A DNA stretch of 64,000 nt from a bacterium (lineage in GTDB: Bacteria > Eisenbacteria > RBG-16-71-46). Where the stretch lies: positions 745-64,744 of the forward strand of contig JBJTRI010000033.1 of the NCBI GenBank assembly GCA_046076045.1. Direction: 5' to 3'. Made by a program: the position numbers and the translations under genes. The notes below the pieces were generated by a model. The model saw only the letters and a program-made list of their open reading frames with translations. It had not been told where the DNA came from and made no database searches. This document shows, piece after piece, positions 5,599 to 48,383 of the stretch (its first letter is position 1; each line of letters starts with the position of its first letter).

Positions 5599-6264
5599 AT
5601 GACCGCCCGTCCGCCCATCATCGCGCCGAGCCTGCTCGCCGCCGACTTCTCGAAGCTCGCCGACGAACTCGCGCTCTGCGATCCCACACGGGACTGGGTC
5701 CACTGCGACGTCATGGACCACCACTTCGTGCCCAACCTCACGTTCGGGCCCATCGTGGTGTCGGCCGCGCGCAAGCTCACCACCGCGACGCTCGACGTCC
5801 ACCTCATGATGGACCGGCCGTGGCTCATGGTGGACGAGTTCCGCAAGGCCGGCGCCGACCTCATCACCGTGCACCTCGAGGCCTGCCGCGAGACGCGCGA
5901 GGTGCTGCGCCAGATCCGTGCCACCGGCGCGCGCGCGGGCCTGGCGATCCGCCCCGGCACGCCGTACGCGGCCGCCGCGCCCTACCTGCCCGACCTCGAC
6001 CTGTTCCTCGTCATGACCGTCGAGCCCGGCTTCGGGGGCCAGTCGTTCATGCCCGACATGATGGAGAAGGTCGCGGCCGCCCGCGAGGAGCGCGCCCGTC
6101 GCAACCTCGGGTTCCTCATCGAGGTGGATGGTGGCATCGCCGCGGACACCGCCCGCACCGCCCGCGAGGCGGGGGCCGACGTGTTCGTGGCCGGCAACGG
6201 CGTGTTCCGCGCCCCCGACCCGCGCGCCGCGCTGGCCGGGATCCGGGCCGCGGTCACCGCCTGA
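5599..6264 (+). CDS. rpe: Ribulose-phosphate 3-epimerase
   Basis: IIAPSLLAADFSKLADEL, HCDVMDHHFVPNLTFGP and MTVEPGFGGQSF are all Rpe signatures. Confidence 0.9.
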   Translation: MTARPPIIAPSLLAADFSKLADELALCDPTRDWVHCDVMDHHFVPNLTFGPIVVSAARKLTTATLDVHLMMDRPWLMVDEFRKAGADLITVHLEACRETREVLRQIRATGARAGLAIRPGTPYAAAAPYLPDLDLFLVMTVEPGFGGQSFMPDMMEKVAAAREERARRNLGFLIEVDGGIAADTARTAREAGADVFVAGNGVFRAPDPRAALAGIRAAVTA

Positions 6265-6350
6265 GACGGGCCCGCGGGCGCATTCCGGGCGGCCTCCGGC
6301 GGCCATGATGTGGTAGTTTCCCCGGTTCCGACATCACCCTAGGGGTTCCC

Positions 6351-7679
6351 GTGTTCGAATCGCTCTCCGACCGGCTGCAAGGCATCCTCCGCAACCTCAG
6401 CGGACAGGGTCGCCTGACGCCGGACAACATCCGCGAGTCGCTGCGAGACGTGCGCCGTGCACTGCTCGAAGCCGACGTGCCCGTCACCGTGGCCAAGGAG
6501 TTCGTGGCCCGGGTCGAGGAGCGCGCGGTCGGCGAGGAGGTGCTGCGCAGCCTCTCGCCCGGACAGCAGGTGGTCGGGGTCGTGCACGAGGAACTGGTGC
6601 GACTGCTCGGCGAGTCGCGCGTCACGCTCGCGGGCTCGCCGCACGTGCCCACCGTGGTGCTGCTCGCCGGCCTGCAGGGCTCGGGCAAGACCACGTTCGC
6701 GGGCAAGCTCGCGGTCTGGCTCAAGGCGCGCGGCAAGCGCACCCTCCTGGTGTCCGCCGACATCTACCGGCCCGCCGCCATCGACCAGCTCGAGCGCGTC
6801 GCGCGCACCGCCGACGCCGGCTTCTGGCGCGCGCCCGACGGCACCTCGCCGCACGACATCGCGGCCGGTGCGCTCGAGCAGGCCCGCACGCGCGGCTTCG
6901 ACTTCCTGCTGCTCGACACCGCCGGCCGCCTGCACGTGGACGACGAGCTCATGGTCGAGCTCGAGGACCTCAAGCGCACCGTGCGCGCGCACCAGGTGCT
7001 GCTCGTGGTGGACGGCATGATCGGGCAGGAGTCGGTGCGCGTCGGGCAGACGTTCGCCGAGCGCATCGGCGTGGACGGTGTCGTGCTGTCCAAGATGGAC
7101 GGCGACGCGCGCGGTGGCGCCGCGCTGTCGCTGCGCCAGGTCACGGGCAAGCCGATCCTGTTCCTCGGCACGGGCGAGAAGCTCGACGGGCTCGAGGTGT
7201 TCGACGCCGGGCGGCTCGCGGGCCGCATCCTCGGCATGGGCGACGTCGTCGGGCTCGTGGAGCGCGCCCAGCAGGCGGTCACCACCGGCGAGGCCGAGCG
7301 GCTGGCCGCCCGCATGCGCAAGTCGGAGTTCACGCTCGAGGACTTCCTCGAGCAGCTCCGGAGCGTCCGCCGCATGGGTCCGCTCGAGGACCTCGTCAAG
7401 ATGATCCCCGGGGCCCCCAAGCAGGCCCTGGAGCGGATGGGCCCGGCCAAGGACCAGCTCAAGCGGTACGAGGCCATCCTCCTCAGCATGACGCTCAAGG
7501 AGCGCCGCCTCCCCCGGGTGCTCGACGGCAGCCGCCGTCGGCGCATCGCGGCGGGCAGCGGCACGTCGGTCCAGGAGGTCAACCGGCTGCTCAAGGACTT
7601 CGAGCAGGCCCGGACCATGATGAAGGCGCTCAAACAGGGCCCCCGGGGGCTTGCAGCCCTCCGCGGCCGGATGCGCTAG
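6351..7679 (+). CDS. ffh: Signal recognition particle protein Ffh
   Basis: GTG start. MFESLSDRLQGILRNL N-terminus, GTPase P-loop LLAGLQGSGKTTFAGKLA, DTAGR motif and a Met-rich M domain. Confidence 0.9.
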   Translation: MFESLSDRLQGILRNLSGQGRLTPDNIRESLRDVRRALLEADVPVTVAKEFVARVEERAVGEEVLRSLSPGQQVVGVVHEELVRLLGESRVTLAGSPHVPTVVLLAGLQGSGKTTFAGKLAVWLKARGKRTLLVSADIYRPAAIDQLERVARTADAGFWRAPDGTSPHDIAAGALEQARTRGFDFLLLDTAGRLHVDDELMVELEDLKRTVRAHQVLLVVDGMIGQESVRVGQTFAERIGVDGVVLSKMDGDARGGAALSLRQVTGKPILFLGTGEKLDGLEVFDAGRLAGRILGMGDVVGLVERAQQAVTTGEAERLAARMRKSEFTLEDFLEQLRSVRRMGPLEDLVKMIPGAPKQALERMGPAKDQLKRYEAILLSMTLKERRLPRVLDGSRRRRIAAGSGTSVQEVNRLLKDFEQARTMMKALKQGPRGLAALRGRMR

Positions 7680-40498: not shown

Positions 40499-40629
40499 GA
40501 GGCTCGCTCGGGTGTCCCGGGGCCCGGGGGGCATGCCCCTCGGGCCCTTGGGCTTGCCGGGGTGCGCTGCGGTGGCGGGGCGCGCTGGCCGATGACGGTG
40601 GCACAAGCCGCACCGGGACTTGACCTTGA

Positions 40630-40665
40630 CCCTTCGCGGGCGCGGTCCCTAGACTCATCCGACGC
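40630..40665 (+). promoter_or_regulatory. Putative sigma70-like promoter upstream of paralog A
   Basis: Tandem TTGACC TTGACC, then an 18-nt spacer and TAGACT, ~55 nt upstream of the ATG at 40721. Confidence 0.35.
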
Positions 40666-42353: not shown

Positions 42354-43757
42354 ATGGAGCGACCCGTGAAGACCCTCGAGGGCGTCCAGTACTTCGAGTC
42401 CATCCTCGACACCGTCGGCCACACCCCGCTCGTCCGCCTGCGCAAGGTCGCGGCGGGCCTGCCCTGCCCGGTGCTCGCCAAGGTCGAGTTCTTCAACCCC
42501 GGCGGGAGCGTGAAGGACCGCATCGGGCTCGCCATGGTGGAGGCGGCCGAGCGCGAGGGGCGGCTCAAGCCGGGCGGCACGATCGTGGAGTGCACCTCGG
42601 GTAACACCGGGCTCGGCTTGGCCATGGTCGCCGCGGTCAAGGGCTACCGCGCGGCGTTCTGCATGCCCGACAAGGTCTCGAGCGAGAAGGTCAACCTGCT
42701 CAAGGCGTTCGGCGCCGAGGTGTTCCTGAGCCCCACGGCCGTCGAGCCTGAGCACCCGGACAGCTACTACAGCGTCGCCAAGCGCATCTCGTCGGAGCGC
42801 CCCGGCGCGGTGCTCATGAACCAGTACCACAACCCCGCGAACCCGGCCGCGCACTACCGCAGCACGGGCCCCGAGTTGTGGGAACAGACGAAGGGCCGCA
42901 TCACGCACTTCGTCGCCGGCATGGGGACGGGGGGCACGATCAGCGGCACCGGCCGATACCTGAAGGAGCGCAATCCCAAGGTGCAGGTGATCGGGGCCGA
43001 CCCCGTGGGCTCGATCCTCAAGCACTACAAGGAGACGGGCGAGATGTCCGAGGCGCACACCTACAAGATCGAGGGTGTGGGCGAGGACTTCATCCCGACC
43101 GCGACCGACTTCGACGTGGTGGACCGCGTCCTGAGTTGCAACGACCACGACGGCCTCAACATGGCCCGCACACTGGCACGCGAGGAGGCCATCTTCGTGG
43201 GTGGTTCGGCCGGCATGGCGGCGTGGGTCGCGCTCGAGGTCGCGAAGGACTGCGGTCCCGACGACCTCGTGGTGGTGCTGCTGCCCGACACCGGCGAGCG
43301 CTACCTCACCAAGGTGCACAACGACGAGTGGATGCGCGACAACCACCTGCTCGACCCGCGCTCGATCCGCGTCGGGACCATCGCCTCGGGCAAGGCGGCG
43401 CGCGTGCGCACGCTGTTCAAGGTCGAAGCGGGCGAGCCGATCAAGCGCGCGCTCGCGCTCATCCAGCAGCACGACGTCTCGCAGTTGCCGGTGTTCCGCG
43501 GCGCCGAGGTGGTGGGTACGCTCGAGGAGAGCGACGTGCTGCGCACCGCGCTCGCCGATCCCGGCTCGATCGATCGTCCGGTGGACTCCATCATGGCGCC
43601 GGCGCTCCCCGTCGTGGGTGCGGCCGAGCCGGCCGACGTGGTCGCCAAGCTGCTCGCGTCGCGGCACCCGGCGGTGCTGGTGCGCGGTGAGAGCGGCGTG
43701 GTGCAGGGCATCCTGACGCGCTTCGACATGCTGCAGTTCATCGCGGGAGGGGAGTGA
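42354..43757 (+). CDS. Cystathionine beta-synthase (PLP cysteine-synthase fold + tandem CBS domains)
   Basis: PLP-lysine motif GGSVKDR, glycine loop GMGTGGTISG, and a C-terminal Bateman pair (two CBS motifs). A possible promoter TTGACG-N17-CTAACT sits at ~42250-42285. Confidence 0.8.
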   Translation: MERPVKTLEGVQYFESILDTVGHTPLVRLRKVAAGLPCPVLAKVEFFNPGGSVKDRIGLAMVEAAEREGRLKPGGTIVECTSGNTGLGLAMVAAVKGYRAAFCMPDKVSSEKVNLLKAFGAEVFLSPTAVEPEHPDSYYSVAKRISSERPGAVLMNQYHNPANPAAHYRSTGPELWEQTKGRITHFVAGMGTGGTISGTGRYLKERNPKVQVIGADPVGSILKHYKETGEMSEAHTYKIEGVGEDFIPTATDFDVVDRVLSCNDHDGLNMARTLAREEAIFVGGSAGMAAWVALEVAKDCGPDDLVVVLLPDTGERYLTKVHNDEWMRDNHLLDPRSIRVGTIASGKAARVRTLFKVEAGEPIKRALALIQQHDVSQLPVFRGAEVVGTLEESDVLRTALADPGSIDRPVDSIMAPALPVVGAAEPADVVAKLLASRHPAVLVRGESGVVQGILTRFDMLQFIAGGE

Positions 43758-44923
43758 TGGCGCACGTCCACGACAAGTCCGGGATCGGCACCAAGGCGAT
43801 CCACGCGGGCCAGCATCCCGACCCCACGACCGGCGCCGTGATGACGCCCATCTACCAGACGAGCACCTACGCCCAGGAGGCGCTCGGGCGCCACAAGGGT
43901 TTCGAGTACGCGCGCACGCACAACGCCACGCGCGCCGCGCTCGAGGGCAACCTCGCCGGGCTCGAGGGTGCGCGCCACGGGCTGTCGTTCGGCTCGGGGC
44001 TCGCGGCCACCAACGCGCTCATGCAGACGCTGTCCGCGGGCGACCACGTCGTGTGCGGGCAGAACACCTACGGCGGCACGTTCCGCCTGTTCGACAAGGT
44101 CTGGAAGCGCCACGGTCTGTCGTTCACGTTCGTGGACGCGACCTCGACCGAGGCCATCGCGGCCGCGTTCCAGCCCACCACCCGCATGGTGTTCGTCGAG
44201 ACGCCCACCAACCCGCTCATGCAGCTCACCGACATCGCCGCGGTGGTGGCGGTCGCGAAGCCGCGCGGCATCACGGTGGTGGTGGACAACACGTTCATGA
44301 CGCCGTACTTCCAGCGGCCGCTCGAGCTGGGTGCCGACGTGGTGTTCCACTCGGTGACCAAGTACCTGAACGGGCACAGCGACATGATCGGCGGCGCGCT
44401 GCTCACGAGCGACGACGCGCTGCACGAGCAGCTGCGGTTCCTGCAGAACGCCGCCGGTGCGGTGCCGGGACCCATGGACTGCTTCCTGTGCCTGCGTGGC
44501 ACCAAGACGCTGGCGGTCCGCATGCAGCGTCACGACGAGAACGCGCGCGAACTGGCGGCGCGGCTCGAGCGTCACCCCAAGGTCTCGAAGGTGTTCTACC
44601 CCGGGCTCGTCAGCCATCCGCAGCACGAGCTCGCCAAGCGTCAGGCGAGTGGTTTCGGCGGCATGATCTCGTTCGTGCCCGGCGACGGCTCGCTCGACGC
44701 GGGGCGTGCGGTGTTCGACCGCTTCCGGTTGTTCACGCGCGCCGAGAGTCTGGGCGGCGTCGAGAGTCTGGTCTGTCACCCGGCCTCGATGACGCACGCC
44801 TCGGTGCCGCGCGAGCGTCGGCTCGCGATGGGCTTCCCCGACGGGTTGTTGCGGTTGTCGGTCGGCATCGAGGACCTCGCCGACCTGACCGAGGATCTGG
44901 GGTATGCGCTCGGTTCGGCCTGA
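43757..44923 (+). CDS. Cystathionine gamma-lyase / gamma-synthase family PLP enzyme
   Basis: Start overlaps the CBS stop (GTG 43754 or ATG 43757; SD GGGAGGGGAG). PLP-lysine motif SVTKYLNGHSD. Cys/Met-metabolism PLP family. Confidence 0.8.
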   Translation: MAHVHDKSGIGTKAIHAGQHPDPTTGAVMTPIYQTSTYAQEALGRHKGFEYARTHNATRAALEGNLAGLEGARHGLSFGSGLAATNALMQTLSAGDHVVCGQNTYGGTFRLFDKVWKRHGLSFTFVDATSTEAIAAAFQPTTRMVFVETPTNPLMQLTDIAAVVAVAKPRGITVVVDNTFMTPYFQRPLELGADVVFHSVTKYLNGHSDMIGGALLTSDDALHEQLRFLQNAAGAVPGPMDCFLCLRGTKTLAVRMQRHDENARELAARLERHPKVSKVFYPGLVSHPQHELAKRQASGFGGMISFVPGDGSLDAGRAVFDRFRLFTRAESLGGVESLVCHPASMTHASVPRERRLAMGFPDGLLRLSVGIEDLADLTEDLGYALGSA

Positions 44924-46304
44924 CCTCGTCCGCGGGCTCGTGCTCGTCGCGCTGCTCGTGGGGGGCGCGGGGTGCGCGCGTCCGCGTGGCGGGTTGGTGG
45001 TGGCGACCAGCAACGACCTGCAGGGCAAGACGAGCCCGTGCGGCTGCCACACGCCCAAGGGCGGGCTCGCGCGCCGGGCCACGTTCGTGGACAGCCTGCG
45101 CGCCGCGGGGCGCGAGGTGCTGGTGCTCGACGCGGGCGGGTTCTTCCCGGTCACCGACGACGAGCGCGACGCGGGGCCGTTCGTGCTCGAGGAACTGGGG
45201 CGTCAGGGCACCGTGGCCGCGGGCGTGGGGCCGAACGAACTGCGCTTCGGCTACTCGTTCGTGCGCGAGCGCGCCCGCGCCGCCGACGTGGCCCTGCTGT
45301 GCGCGAACCTGGTGCGGTTCGAGACCGGCGCGCCCGCGTTCGAGGGCTGGCGCACGTTCGAACGTGCCGGGGTGCGGGTGGGCGTGTTCGGCCTCATGGC
45401 TGAGGGCGCCGACATGGGCCCGGCGCGCGACTCGCTGCGCGTGGACCCGGTCGAGCCGGCGGCCCGGCGCGCGGTCGAGGCGCTGCGCGCCGACGGGGCG
45501 CAGGTCGTGGTGCTGCTCTCGCAGCTCGGGCGCGCCCAGGGCGAGAGCCTCGCGGTGCGCGTGCCCGGGATCGACCTCGTGGTGGGCGGCGGCGGCGTGC
45601 CGCACCTCGACGACGGGGTGCGCGTGGGCGACGCGACCGCGGTGTACGGCGGGCACCAGGGTTGGTACATGGGGGTGACCGAGGTGCGGGCGGCAGGGAC
45701 GGGCCGCGCGGAGCTCGCGGTCCGCACCCACATGCTCGGACCCGGCGTGCGCGACCAGCGCGCGACCGCGGCCGCGGTGAAGGTGTTCGAGGACTCGCTC
45801 AACGCCCGCATGCGGCGACGCGACGCCGAACTCGCCGCCGGGACGAAGCCGGGGGCGCGCCCCGAGCACTACGTGGGCATGTCGAACTGCGTCCGCTGCC
45901 ACAAGCAGGAGTACGCGCAGTGGGCCACCACGGCCCACGCCCGCGCGTGGAAGACGCTGGTGGACCTGCAGAAGGAGTCCACGCCCGCGTGCGTGGGCTG
46001 CCACGTGACCGGCTACCGCCAGCCGGGCGGGTTCCGCACCGCCGAGGACGCGGCGCGTCTGGCCAACGTGCAGTGCGAGTCGTGCCACGGCATGGGGACC
46101 GACCATCGCGAGTGGCAGGAGAACGGCAACACGGTGGCCGAGGCGGTCTGCCGCACCTGTCACACCCCCACGACCAGTCCCGGGTTCACCATGGCGGCGT
46201 ACCGCCCGCACGTGCTGCACACCCCGCCGGCCGACCTGCGACCGCTGCCCGAGAGCCCCGCGAAGAAGCTCATGCGGGAAGGGGCCGACCCGCACGGGAA
46301 GTGA
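44904..46304 (+). CDS. Paralog B: lipoprotein fusion of a degenerate 5'-nucleotidase-like domain and a C-terminal tetraheme cytochrome c, with Cys (CGCH) at the position of the TGA in paralog A
   Basis: ATG at 44904 overlaps the upstream gene end by 20 nt. Lipobox LLVGGAGC. NDLQGK..GGLARRATF..GPNELRF echoes the 5'-NT motifs without the His ligands. Heme motifs CVRCH, CVGCH, CESCH, CRTCH. Confidence 0.65.
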   Translation: MRSVRPDLVRGLVLVALLVGGAGCARPRGGLVVATSNDLQGKTSPCGCHTPKGGLARRATFVDSLRAAGREVLVLDAGGFFPVTDDERDAGPFVLEELGRQGTVAAGVGPNELRFGYSFVRERARAADVALLCANLVRFETGAPAFEGWRTFERAGVRVGVFGLMAEGADMGPARDSLRVDPVEPAARRAVEALRADGAQVVVLLSQLGRAQGESLAVRVPGIDLVVGGGGVPHLDDGVRVGDATAVYGGHQGWYMGVTEVRAAGTGRAELAVRTHMLGPGVRDQRATAAAVKVFEDSLNARMRRRDAELAAGTKPGARPEHYVGMSNCVRCHKQEYAQWATTAHARAWKTLVDLQKESTPACVGCHVTGYRQPGGFRTAEDAARLANVQCESCHGMGTDHREWQENGNTVAEAVCRTCHTPTTSPGFTMAAYRPHVLHTPPADLRPLPESPAKKLMREGADPHGK

Positions 46305-46463
46305 CGATCCGCCGAACGGGCTGCGGTGACCGGACCAGCGGCGTCGGGGTCGCCCGCCACGGAGGAGGGACGAGCGGTCAGCGGTCCCTAACCGTCTATG
46401 TCAAGGTTTTGTCAGGGTTTGATTCCCGGCCCTTGCTGCGGCCCTTGCCGGGGGCCGGTCGGG

Positions 46464-46492
46464 TTGACAAGGTCCGGGGTGGAACATAGCCT
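46464..46492 (+). promoter_or_regulatory. Putative sigma70-like promoter in the low-GC intergenic region
   Basis: Consensus -35 TTGACA, 17-nt spacer, then TAGCCT (T1, A2, T6 conserved). Upstream are tandem TGTCA(A/G)GGTTT half-sites at 46398-46419. A ~200-nt leader would precede the ATG at 46712. Confidence 0.35.
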
Positions 46493-46711
46493 GCAACCGC
46501 TTCGAGGGAGGGTGTCCACCTCGCGAGAGGGGCGCCTTGGCCGCGATCAAAACCGCATACGCGCATGGACGCAGCCTGCCCGACACCGCTCGAGGTTCTA
46601 CAGTGGTGTCTTTTCATGGGCACCCATTGTCATCGAAAACACTGGAAAACACGGCCGTTCCCGGCGAATGCCCGGAGGACGGCAGCGTGGAAGGAGGTGA
46701 ACGTGCACACG

Positions 46712-46894
46712 ATGCGTAAGCTCTTTGCTCTGGCGCTCATGGCCCTGGCCCTCGCGTTCGTCGCGGTGGGTTGTGGCAACAAGACCGAGACGCCTGCCGA
46801 GACCGCCACGGAGGCTCCTTCGGAGACGGTCGATACGACGGCTATGGCTGCGGATACCACCGCCGCCGCTGCCGATACGACGGCGGCCCACTAA
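46712..46894 (+). CDS. Tiny lipoprotein (60 aa) with a Thr/Ala-rich repetitive tail
   Basis: Perfect SD AAGGAGGTGA (alternative GTG start at 46703). Lipobox AFVAVGC. Tail TTAMAADTTAAAADTTAAH. TAA stop and lower GC3 than the rest of the genome. Confidence 0.6.
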   Translation: MRKLFALALMALALAFVAVGCGNKTETPAETATEAPSETVDTTAMAADTTAAAADTTAAH

Positions 46895-46921
46895 GGTCGA
46901 CGTTGGCACGTGTGTCACCCG

Positions 46922-46960
46922 GGGGGAGTCGCGTTCCACGCGACTCCCCTTCGGCTTTCC
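46922..46960 (+). terminator. Rho-independent terminator
   Basis: ggggggagtcgcg-ttcca-cgcgactcccc (11-12 bp stem) followed by ttcggctttcc, starting 28 nt after the TAA. Confidence 0.65.
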
Positions 46961-47153
46961 GGCCCCGATGCAACCCGGCCGTCGCCACGCGCGTAGCACG
47001 AACATGTGGTCGCGTTCCCGTGCCCTCCGGCGTACCCGGTGCGGCAGGGGCGTCCGCCCCCTCGGACCGGGGCAGCGTTCCCGGTCCGGCGCCGGATCAC
47101 CGGACGGGGGTGGGGGCCCGAATCCCCAGTCGAAGCGACGAGCGGAGGTTGCC

Positions 47154-48383
47154 ATGAAGCGCCGACTCCTCGAACCCGTCTCGATCGGTCTCACCCTCCT
47201 CGTCCTCGCCCTCTCGTTCGGCCACGGCTCAGCGGGCGCCGAGGAGCGCCGGATGCGCTTCCGCCCGGTGCCCGCCGAGAGCGTGGCCGCGGTCGAGGCT
47301 CGCGACCGCGCGTCCGCCGCCGCCCGCGACGCGGCGAAGGCGACCGACGACGCTCGCGGAGTGGCCGACCTCTCCGTCGAGGTCTCCGACGTCTCCGACT
47401 CGACCGACACCACCGAGGCCGTCGAGGACGAGCCCAGGAGCCGCTCCACGACCGGCGAGATCATGCGCTTCGGCAGCGACGTCACCGTGCGCGCCCGGCA
47501 GATCGTCTCGGGCGACGTGGTCTCGTTCGGGGGCGACGCCGACATCCGCGGCACGGTGCGCGGGGACGTCGTGGTGATGGGCGGCGACGTCACGCTGCGT
47601 CAGGGCGCGGTCGTCGAGGGCGACGTGGTCTGCATGGGCGGCACGCTCACCGAGCACCCGGGCTCGGTCGTGAAGGGTCAGCGCGTCACCGCGCCCCGTT
47701 CGCCGGGCGGCAAGCTGTTCATGCCCATGCTGGCCCTGGTCGGGACCGGCGTGCAGTTGGTGCTCAACGTCGTCGGGCTGTTGCTCGCGATCGCGGTCGC
47801 GTGGCTGGTGGCCAAGCTCGCGCCCCGGCGCACGCAGTCCGCCCTCGACCAGATCGACACCGCTGCGGGGGCCTCGTTCCTCACCGGCCTCGCCGTGTGG
47901 GCGCTCCTCATCCCCAGCGTGGTCGCGCTCGCCCTGGTGATCGCGCTGCTCTGCATCACCATCATCGGCATCCCCCTCGCCGCGGTCGTGGTGCTGGCCT
48001 ACGTGCTGTTCTTCGCCATCTCGGCGCTCTGGGGGGCGGTCGTGGGCTTCGCGCTCTTCGGTCGCATGCTCCACGCCCGCTTCAAGGGTACGGCGGCCCC
48101 GCTCGCGACCGCGGTCGTGTGGGGTGCGGTCGCGGTGCACGGTGCGGCCATCGTGGCCGACCTGTTCGACATCGTGCCCATGTTCGGTTTCGTGGGCGTG
48201 CTGCTCATGGTCGTCCACTACGTGCTGCTCTCGGCCCTCGCCACGCTCGGGGCCGGCGCGCTCATCCACAGCGAGTACCGGCGGCGCTGGCTGCAGGAGT
48301 GGTGGCAGCGCATCCGACCCGCGCGCCCGAACGACCCGCTGCCGCCGCCGCCCGCCCCACCCGGGGCCGGCATCGCGGGCTGA
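47154..48383 (+). CDS. Membrane protein with an N-terminal bactofilin-like (polymer-forming, beta-helix) repeat domain and a C-terminal polytopic TM domain
   Basis: ATG with GGAGG 5 nt upstream. Signal/TM segment, then GDVVSFGGDADIRGTVRGDVVVMGGDVTLRQGAVVEGDVVCMGG repeats, then 4-5 hydrophobic helices and a Pro-rich tail. Confidence 0.55.
   Translation: MKRRLLEPVSIGLTLLVLALSFGHGSAGAEERRMRFRPVPAESVAAVEARDRASAAARDAAKATDDARGVADLSVEVSDVSDSTDTTEAVEDEPRSRSTTGEIMRFGSDVTVRARQIVSGDVVSFGGDADIRGTVRGDVVVMGGDVTLRQGAVVEGDVVCMGGTLTEHPGSVVKGQRVTAPRSPGGKLFMPMLALVGTGVQLVLNVVGLLLAIAVAWLVAKLAPRRTQSALDQIDTAAGASFLTGLAVWALLIPSVVALALVIALLCITIIGIPLAAVVVLAYVLFFAISALWGAVVGFALFGRMLHARFKGTAAPLATAVVWGAVAVHGAAIVADLFDIVPMFGFVGVLLMVVHYVLLSALATLGAGALIHSEYRRRWLQEWWQRIRPARPNDPLPPPPAPPGAGIAG

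Follow-up and report, generated by a model that had tools for sequence, protein, structure and literature searches.

Positions 46399-46959 (plus strand) of the Eisenbacteria DNA analysed here, a stretch of 64,000 nt that we call the window, hold a conserved expression unit that runs from an upstream element through a promoter, a long leader and the gene for a tiny predicted lipoprotein to a terminator. Judged by comparison of sequences, the leader is a conserved structured RNA of ~205 nt with four helices, P1 to P4. We propose that it is a new cis-acting leader of the attenuator type, in which the third helix, P3, and the U tract that follows it would either terminate transcription or let it through to the lipoprotein gene. 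This reading is tentative; we put its probability at roughly 45%.

In our model, a sigma-70-type promoter would start the mRNA at about 46499, and the leader would fold into a 5' domain made of P1 and P2, followed by P3 and P4. P3 and the U tract would act as an intrinsic terminator inside the leader. A stop at this point would leave an RNA of ~118 nt, and read-through past P3 would give an mRNA of ~460 nt. The longer RNA would be translated efficiently, because P4 would leave the Shine-Dalgarno (SD) sequence free and the first codons are AT-enriched. Last, a trans-acting factor, most likely a protein, would recognise P3 and set either the read-through or the stability of the mRNA.

Conservation and fold of the leader

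A search with the protein encoded upstream of the unit identified the host. It returned 25 loci in species-representative genomes, nearly all of them labelled Candidatus Eisenbacteria, and the best match (L001) was 94% identical. When positions 46305-46960 were compared with these loci by blastn, the block from the -35 hexamer to the terminator aligned in 10 of them, with E values from 1e-44 to 1e-99. The nucleotide identity of this block was 71-77% in ten relatives (96% in L001), whereas the neighbouring protein was just 59-68% identical. In five deeper lineages the module lies ~3 kb further downstream, right after a gene for a Cys/Met pyridoxal phosphate (PLP) enzyme. A metagenome scan with a pattern made of the promoter and the P3 hairpin added 50 loci (L026-L075), mainly on soil and rhizosphere contigs, and the loci fetched by the small protein alone (L077, L078 and L080-L089) contained the module too. 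Short public contigs, considered as stand-ins for transcripts, turned out to be metagenome assemblies.

In all, the module is known from more than 70 genome and metagenome loci. Its parts are TTGACA-N17-TAGCCT, the ~205-nt leader, AGGAGGTGA followed by GTG/ATG, a lipoprotein of 60-63 aa and a hairpin terminator. A small lipoprotein open reading frame (ORF) follows the leader in every sequence-complete module. The incomplete ones are cut by contig ends (L040, L031 and L056), apart from L075, which is an assembly artefact: at 6224-6614 this contig ends with the first part of the small ORF repeated in inverse orientation (reverse complement ..GCAAAAAGCTTACGCATCGTGTGCACG), which truncates the ORF. 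No other gene family was found 3' of the leader in searches that required either the promoter pattern or the neighbouring protein, which makes the lipoprotein family its exclusive partner. Promoter, leader and small gene are one unit that is conserved together, and not a chance cluster. An earlier reading of the window (the original prediction) had described a long non-coding leader that has a dedicated promoter and serves one tiny, monocistronic lipoprotein gene with a terminator of its own, and had named a lack of conservation of leader or ORF in relatives as the finding that would speak against it. Comparative alignment shows the block, and with it the whole arrangement, to be conserved.

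The fold of the leader was examined with a covariance model of its 5' half, seeded from one clade. This model scores 70 bits in the window (E = 1.4e-15) and finds exactly one copy per locus. In the model-guided alignment of 59 distinct sequences, 92% of the pair cells hold standard pairs, compared with 29-62% when the partners are slid by 1-3 columns. Both sides have changed in 17 of the 27 pairs (7-10 in the slid controls), and there are 140 cells with a double change (17-34 in the controls). As the alignment is fitted to the model structure, these counts lean towards the model; the slid controls and the folds of single sequences agree with it. RNAalifold, run on plain MAFFT alignments of all clades, recovered P3 alone, and P1 and P2 needed the model-guided alignment.

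P1 is a long 5' hairpin (46509-46538, plus strand) that is present in the minimum-free-energy fold of the window and shows the strongest covariation. All 11 of its model pairs changed on both sides across the 59 sequences (with pair types such as AU 18, CG 17 and GC 5, or UA 22 and CG 13), and the top mutual-information pairs of the alignment are P1 pairs. P2 (GGC.GCG ... CGC.GCC; 46539-46576, plus strand) encloses a CA-rich interior, AUCAAAACCGCAUA, whose sequence differs between clades. Its support is moderate: helices 3-5 of the model are 84-91% paired, with changes on both sides in six of seven pairs. P4 (46650-46689, plus strand) is a hairpin that ends 1-3 nt 5' of the SD and folds at -23.6 kcal/mol (z = -2.65). 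Across 50 distinct sequences its pairs are kept in 78-100%, with compensatory types such as CG 23/GC 14 and CG 42/UA 4. The SD is predicted to lie unpaired beside P4 and is not sequestered. The pattern of substitutions indicates that P1, P2 and P4 are kept through compensatory changes. Thus, the suggestion that the leader might be a riboswitch or a small RNA (sRNA) is borne out to the extent that it is a structured, conserved RNA.

The P1 loop of the deep clades contains GCCAGGUCC as an invariant motif (L013 8243-8290; also L012, L029, L030, L032 and L063), which is absent from the clade of the window. This loop has a likeness to domain IV of signal recognition particle (SRP) RNA, but the Rfam scan gave no SRP hit and we rejected the assignment.

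A coding role for the leader was also rejected. An in-frame ATG at 46565 would open a 109-aa ORF, as a leader peptide or an N-terminal extension of the lipoprotein, but it is not conserved (AAGGAC or CAGGGA in relatives), and segments of the leader differ in length among relatives by non-multiples of three. These two observations argue that the leader is non-coding. An RNA from the minus strand was set aside as well: that strand folds less well, and a conserved G.U pair in P3 would be C.A there, which places the RNA on the plus strand.

The new structured leader RNA is well supported, by covariation in three helices and by more than 55 distinct sequences, and is fit for Rfam-style curation. 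It overturns no concept; new leader motifs without an assigned function turn up regularly.

P3 as a candidate attenuator and the competing explanations

P3 (46582-46617, plus strand) was not among the features of the original prediction. In the window it consists of a 9-bp stem formed by GACACCGCU (46582-46590) and AGUGGUGUC (46602-46610) around an 11-nt loop, followed by UUUUCAU (46611-46617), and lies about 90 nt before the start codon. Together with its flanks it folds at -19.6 kcal/mol (z = -3.5). Its arms, ACACCGCU and AGUGGUG(U), are identical in 16 of 16 loci that were fetched without reference to them, and the loop varies among relatives both in sequence and in length (7-13 nt). The stem has 8-9 bp over the loci compared. 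In L077 the arm is ACACCAC, and the pairing is retained. In most lineages P3 runs into a tract of six or seven U (clades 1, 3, 4 and some members of clade 2), and where clades 1, 3 and 4 are compared the hairpin and seven U are unchanged while the adjacent spacer drifts. Relatives with seven U have loops of 7-9 nt, and in one of them, L011, both P3 and the gene's own terminator pass the terminator scan. A second promoter (sigma-70, sigma-54 or extracytoplasmic function type) was sought in 46618-46690, and no conserved pattern was visible by eye in the spacer sequences. Since the spacer between P3 and P4 holds no conserved promoter pattern, the ORF would be reached by read-through.

Terminator-based attenuation is known from riboswitch, T-box and PyrR/LicT-target leaders. 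The leader described here resembles these in having a promoter, ~200 nt of structured RNA with covarying helices, and a hairpin with a U tract placed tens of nucleotides before the SD. It differs from them in that the terminator stem is its most conserved part, no antiterminator was found, the U tract is absent in some lineages, and a single gene family is served.

Several observations weigh against attenuation by P3. In the deep clades (L012-L018 and half of clade 7) the hairpin is unchanged but the U tract has degenerated or is absent, and termination therefore cannot be the ancestral or universal role of P3. In the window, P3 was not reported by the terminator scan, as its 11-nt loop exceeds 8 nt and its UUUU is followed by CAU. 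Folds truncated before the 3' arm of P3 revealed, across clades, no consistent antiterminator partner but a 5' GCGGU, and in this GCGGU:ACCGC pairing the GCGGU lies before the inferred transcription start site (TSS). A helix around both P3 and the U tract, which in the window would be UGCCCG/UGGGCA, came to 4.18 bp, compared with 4.19 bp in the shuffled control. The folding energy of the whole leader is not unusual (z = -1.35). Finally, to cite L026-L075 for the invariance of P3 would be circular: they were found with a pattern that demanded it.

As the UUUU run is short and the loop long in the window, termination there would probably be partial, and the window P3 is probably a weak terminator at best. 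The scan itself found four canonical terminators in the 30-50 kb part of the window, compared with 4.0 expected, which is chance level. The sequence of the P3 stem is invariant even where the U tract is missing, and this suggests a trans-acting factor and not termination alone.

Other pairings around P3 were considered and rejected. The A-rich spacer behind it has two copies of GAAAACAC (46635-46642 and 46645-46652; span 46635-46652, plus strand) that are complementary to the 3' arm of P3 and the U run. Pairing of the U tract with GAAAACAC gave duplexes ~1.5 standard deviations better than shuffles in clades 2 and 4 only, and the pairing was absent in deep clades. A long-range helix that would join CGGNUCG, at the extreme 5' end, to the bases immediately 5' of P3 was good in L027 and L010, mismatched in most clades and probably upstream of the TSS. 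Both sides of a pairing between a 5' CGCUUY and GAGGUG of the SD are invariant; it is weak (three G.U pairs), and no covariation is possible. We also observed that in clades 1 and 4 (L011 5557-5575; L010) CUGAGUCCCGGACUU is kept right after the U tract (palindromic, AGTCC-N-GGACT in DNA) in a spacer that otherwise drifts. The window counterpart, at 46618-46630, differs from this stretch.

If attenuation by P3 is taken one step further, the leader would represent a new class of regulatory RNA confined to Eisenbacteria. P3 would then be the operator for an RNA-binding regulator, or part of a new sensor, that chooses between the ~118-nt RNA and the full mRNA of a PG1828-like, probably O-glycosylated lipoprotein, and the short RNA may act in trans. 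We regard this fuller proposal as possible, though doubtful.

The 5' untranslated region (UTR) of Escherichia coli ompA carries stabilising stem-loops, and it is the model for the strongest alternative to attenuation, an alternative that we consider rather unlikely. By this account the leader is a constitutive UTR that stabilises the mRNA or enhances its expression: P1 and P4 would protect an abundant mRNA from 5'-end-dependent decay, P3 would be structural or bind a protein, the U- and A-rich stretches would enhance translation, and nothing would be switched. The two systems are alike in several ways. Both belong to a monocistronic, presumably highly expressed gene for an envelope protein with a strong terminator of its own, and both have a hairpin near the 5' end and another just 5' of an accessible SD. 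The never-sequestered SD with P4 abutting it fits this account, as does the selection for high expression that is implied by the consensus -35 hexamer, the perfect SD and the invariant, AT-enriched first codons. So do the retention of P3 without a U tract in deep clades, the weak U run of the window, and the variation of the P2 interior by clade, with no common sensing core visible. A further point in its favour is that PG1828, a relative of the lipoprotein, co-purifies with lipopolysaccharide (LPS) preparations and adds to their Toll-like receptor 2 (TLR2) activity (PMC13466725). However, a hairpin with seven U that is unchanged in clades 1, 3 and 4 and scores as a terminator would be costly for a purely constitutive UTR, and stabiliser hairpins do not need an invariant stem sequence. 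The leader also differs from that of ompA in its internal terminator-like hairpin with U7, in the lack of any sequence relation and in its host, an uncultured phylum of the Fibrobacteres-Chlorobi-Bacteroidetes (FCB) group.

A somewhat less likely alternative is that two genes share one promoter, with 46499-46616 being a trans-acting sRNA of ~118 nt ended by P3, and the lipoprotein mRNA made by read-through only. SreA and SreB of Listeria are riboswitch-derived sRNAs, and the short RNA predicted here (~118 nt) would resemble them as a product of a 5' UTR that arises by premature termination. Bacterial sRNA genes are built in just this order, with a promoter, a structured domain, a hairpin and U7; the covariation of P1 and P2 is what a stable RNA would show; and a single-stranded CA-rich stretch (CACAAC.GCAUA), found in clades 2-4 and part of clade 1, is a candidate seed. 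Yet this putative seed is not conserved across clades, and the deep clades that lack the U tract would leave the RNA without a discrete 3' end. Moreover, every copy of the domain that was found was accompanied by the lipoprotein gene, in searches that all required the promoter pattern or the neighbouring protein.

We consider it quite improbable that the leader is a metabolite riboswitch with P1 and P2 as aptamer and P3 as the terminator of the expression platform. In its favour, riboswitches typically combine a terminator hairpin with a long, structured leader, and P1 and P2 covary. The Rfam/Infernal check that the original prediction had suggested found no known family in the region: Rfam 15 (4227 models) gave no match at the gathering threshold in the whole window, only two chance-level matches to microRNA models (E 5-9) in 45800-47400, and no match at E <= 1 in six loci from different clades. 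As it lies outside Rfam, the leader could be a new riboswitch class. But the unpaired nucleotides that would form a ligand core, in the P1 loop and the P2 interior, differ by clade (CACAAC.GCAUA, ACACCC.. or GCCAGGUCC-type), and no common core remains; what is invariant in all clades is the promoter, GCUUY, the P3 arms and the SD. The search for a mutually exclusive antiterminator found none, the one associated gene family has no metabolic link, and conservation is highest in the stem of the supposed expression platform, which is the opposite of the usual riboswitch pattern. The riboswitch part of the original prediction is therefore not upheld.

The remaining idea, that a low-GC expression cassette was acquired horizontally, is highly improbable: its GC is below that of the flanks, but non-coding sequence and the AT-enriched initiation region account for this, the same neighbours recur in lineages with no more than 50-68% protein identity, and there are no mobile-element features. 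The drop in GC that had been called sharp is real and modest, with 61-68% over 46300-46900 compared with a window mean of 73%. Conservation of the neighbours across deep Eisenbacteria lineages argues that the module was inherited vertically, and the horizontal origin that had been held possible is contradicted by this synteny.

The promoter and the sequences upstream

The promoter (46464-46492, plus strand) consists of a -35 hexamer, TTGACA (46464-46469), a 17-nt spacer and a -10 hexamer, TAGCCT (46487-46492), followed by a GC-rich GCN discriminator. All 16 loci found through the neighbouring protein have the same TTGACA and TAGCCTGC, apart from one GTGACA, always at a distance of 17 nt, and the spacer sequence varies. 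The same promoter is present in the loci anchored on the small protein (L077, L078 and L080-83). Matched against the consensus, the -35 hexamer scores 6/6 and TAGCCT 3/6 of TATAAT. The scan rule of 4/6 per hexamer thus failed, and a consensus promoter scan of both strands of 45800-47400 reported no site. Invariant hexamers at an invariant distance, with a drifting sequence between them, argue that the promoter is in use. From this conservation, rather than from a match to the consensus, we take it to be a probable sigma-70-type promoter; the original prediction had pointed out the two hexamers and their spacing. The usual distance of 7 nt from the -10 hexamer puts the inferred TSS at about 46499.

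Eisenbacteria are an uncultured phylum known from metagenomes only, and our literature search on them found no work on RNAs or gene regulation among the matches listed. From the module a first promoter consensus can be inferred for the phylum (TTGACA-17-TAGCCT, then GCG), and the module is also evidence for SD-led translation and for hairpin/U-tract terminators in it. Further promoter-like sites were seen at L011 8509-8481 (minus strand; TTGACA-17-TAGAAT, 11/12) and at window positions 40626-40655 (TTGACC-18-TAGACT). These may help in defining the promoter consensus of the phylum.

Upstream of the promoter, at 46399-46420 (plus strand; about -100 to -79 from the inferred TSS), lies an element made of TGTCAAGGTTT and TGTCAGGGTTT. 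The tandem half-sites that had been reported are present in the sequence, but their reading as tandem operators does not stand, as the exact 11-mers are found outside the window only in the two closest relatives, L001 and L036. A looser pattern, CAA-N4-TT-N6-CA-N4-GTT, keeps a fixed offset from the -35 hexamer in nearly all of the 57 modules, as seen in ungapped displays anchored on that hexamer. In the deep clades the Cys/Met PLP-enzyme gene reaches with its 3' end into this CAA/TT/CA/GTT region. A direct repeat, GGCCCTTGC-TGC-GGCCCTTGC (46428-46448), is placed between the element and the -35 hexamer; the window has it in common only with L001 and L036.

The small lipoprotein gene and its neighbours

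The translation initiation region (46691-46714, plus strand) contains the SD, AAGGAGGTGA (46691-46700), a GTG (46703-46705) and an ATG (46712-46714). AGGAGGTGAACGTGCACACGATGCGTAAGC is identical in every main-clade sequence and lay outside all search patterns. The GTG is 5 nt after the SD, the ATG is 14 nt after GGAGG, and gene callers begin at the GTG (MHTMRKLF). In L043 (minus strand, module start 198, oriented) an ACG replaces the ATG and the upstream GTG is intact. Spacing, gene-caller starts and L043 together point to the GTG as the likely start in the main clade. The window protein is thus likely to begin at 46703 and to have 63 aa, and not the 60 aa counted from the ATG in the original prediction, which was right about the small gene and its TAA at 46892-46894. 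Its claim of a perfect SD also stands in part: the sequence is there, and as a 9-10-mer it is unique, AAGGAGGTGA having a single occurrence in the 64-kb window. SDs as such are not rare in this genome, as GGAGG-type SDs precede many ORFs in the window.

The gene (46703-46894, plus strand) encodes a signal peptide, a lipobox (A-V-G-C) and a mature tail of ~40 aa. Read from the ORF, the window protein begins with M(HTM)RK, followed by LFALALMALALAFV and then A-V-G-C, the layout of a lipoprotein signal. Its lipoprotein status is predicted from the basic region, the hydrophobic core and the lipobox Cys. This Cys and the preceding G/A/S are kept in 52 of 52 distinct homologues. The search for homologues found 71, all of them uncharacterised, and the 52 distinct complete ORFs each lie 3' of the leader. 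The mature tails of the family are rich in A, T, S, D and M and end in H or K; that of the window protein has three D-T-T motifs and ends in AAH. Cytophagia-type Bacteroidota (Ohtaekwangia, Chryseolinea and Marivirga; P0069-P0071, L076 3001-3186) have distant homologues whose C-terminus is the same, ADTTAAAADTTAAH.

The best family match is to NCBIfam PG1828_fam_lipo (NF050142), with E = 9.6e-7 and 29.4 bits over all 59 positions of the profile; this stays below the curated cutoff of 50, and part of the similarity comes from the signal peptide and from low-complexity sequence. This profile is matched at E <= 0.1 by 39 of 43 Eisenbacteria homologues, and the Bacteroidota homologue P0070 scores 46.6 bits. 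On profile comparison, the window protein is a sub-threshold relative of this family of small lipoproteins of Bacteroidota. It shares with PG1828 proteins a length of ~60 aa, a lipoprotein signal peptide and a short, low-complexity tail. It differs in its score (29 bits, with a cutoff of 50) and in its leader, which the one Bacteroidota locus examined lacks. PG1828 of Porphyromonas gingivalis is a triacylated outer-membrane lipoprotein that activates TLR2, and LPS preparations from PG1828-deficient mutants activate TLR2 less (PMC10126205, PMC13466725). Other assignments of the window protein failed. LptM/YifL (NF047847), the automatic JGI label of some homologues, reached 19 bits against a cutoff of 27.7, over residues 4-27 only (the signal peptide and lipobox); OsmB gave E = 0.11 and 12 bits against a cutoff of 98; and the profile of Braun's lipoprotein, Lpp, gave no match to the window protein.

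In Bacteroidota, O-glycosylation occurs at D-(S/T)-(A/L/V/I/M/T) in non-cytoplasmic regions (PMC12871550). Among 52 proteins, this motif occurs 2.63 times per mature peptide of ~40 aa, compared with 0.46 times in composition-preserving shuffles. This suggests that the small lipoprotein of Eisenbacteria is an O-glycosylated lipopeptide of the Bacteroidota type. A tiny lipoprotein family that is shared by Eisenbacteria and Bacteroidota and has a motif-rich tail bears on the origin of O-glycosylation within the FCB group. At the one Bacteroidota locus examined, the upstream region is only 74 nt long and has a TAnnTTTG-type promoter and no such leader. Thus, the leader looks specific to Eisenbacteria.

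The terminator hairpin of the gene (46919-46954; with its tail 46919-46959, plus strand) has a core of GGGGAGUCGCG/CGCGACUCCCC and the tail UUCGGCUUUC. It folds at -29.7 kcal/mol (z = -4.8), none of 200 shuffles was as good, and relatives keep it: in L003 and L009 a U-A pair has become C-G by a compensatory change. The tail is interrupted, and the window terminator fails the consensus terminator scan. The strong intrinsic terminator of the original prediction is thus a stable and conserved hairpin that does not pass as canonical.

On the 5' side, the module follows a multihaem cytochrome gene (44904-46304, a Cytochrome_C554 match), whose stop codon lies at 46302-46304 and after which there are ~400 nt without a conserved ORF. 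The stable upstream neighbours of the module are the Cys/Met PLP-enzyme gene and, in some clades, the cytochrome gene. In the window the two overlap by 20 nt (PLP-enzyme gene 43754-44923). In L077 (39-2668) the cytochrome gene is absent between the PLP-enzyme gene and the module, and in a deep clade (L013 3836-8156) it lies upstream of a pair of CBS-like and PLP-enzyme genes. These different placements indicate that the cytochrome gene was rearranged around a fixed module.

Downstream, the stable neighbours encode a bactofilin-like membrane protein, a VTT-domain protein and a hydantoinase. In the window the next gene (47154-48383) encodes 409 aa, with a weakly bactofilin-like N-terminal part (E = 1.8e-4, below the cutoff) and a hydrophobic C-terminal half. 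This bactofilin-like protein is encoded 3' of the lipoprotein gene in all loci examined, and it may be a functional partner of the lipoprotein.

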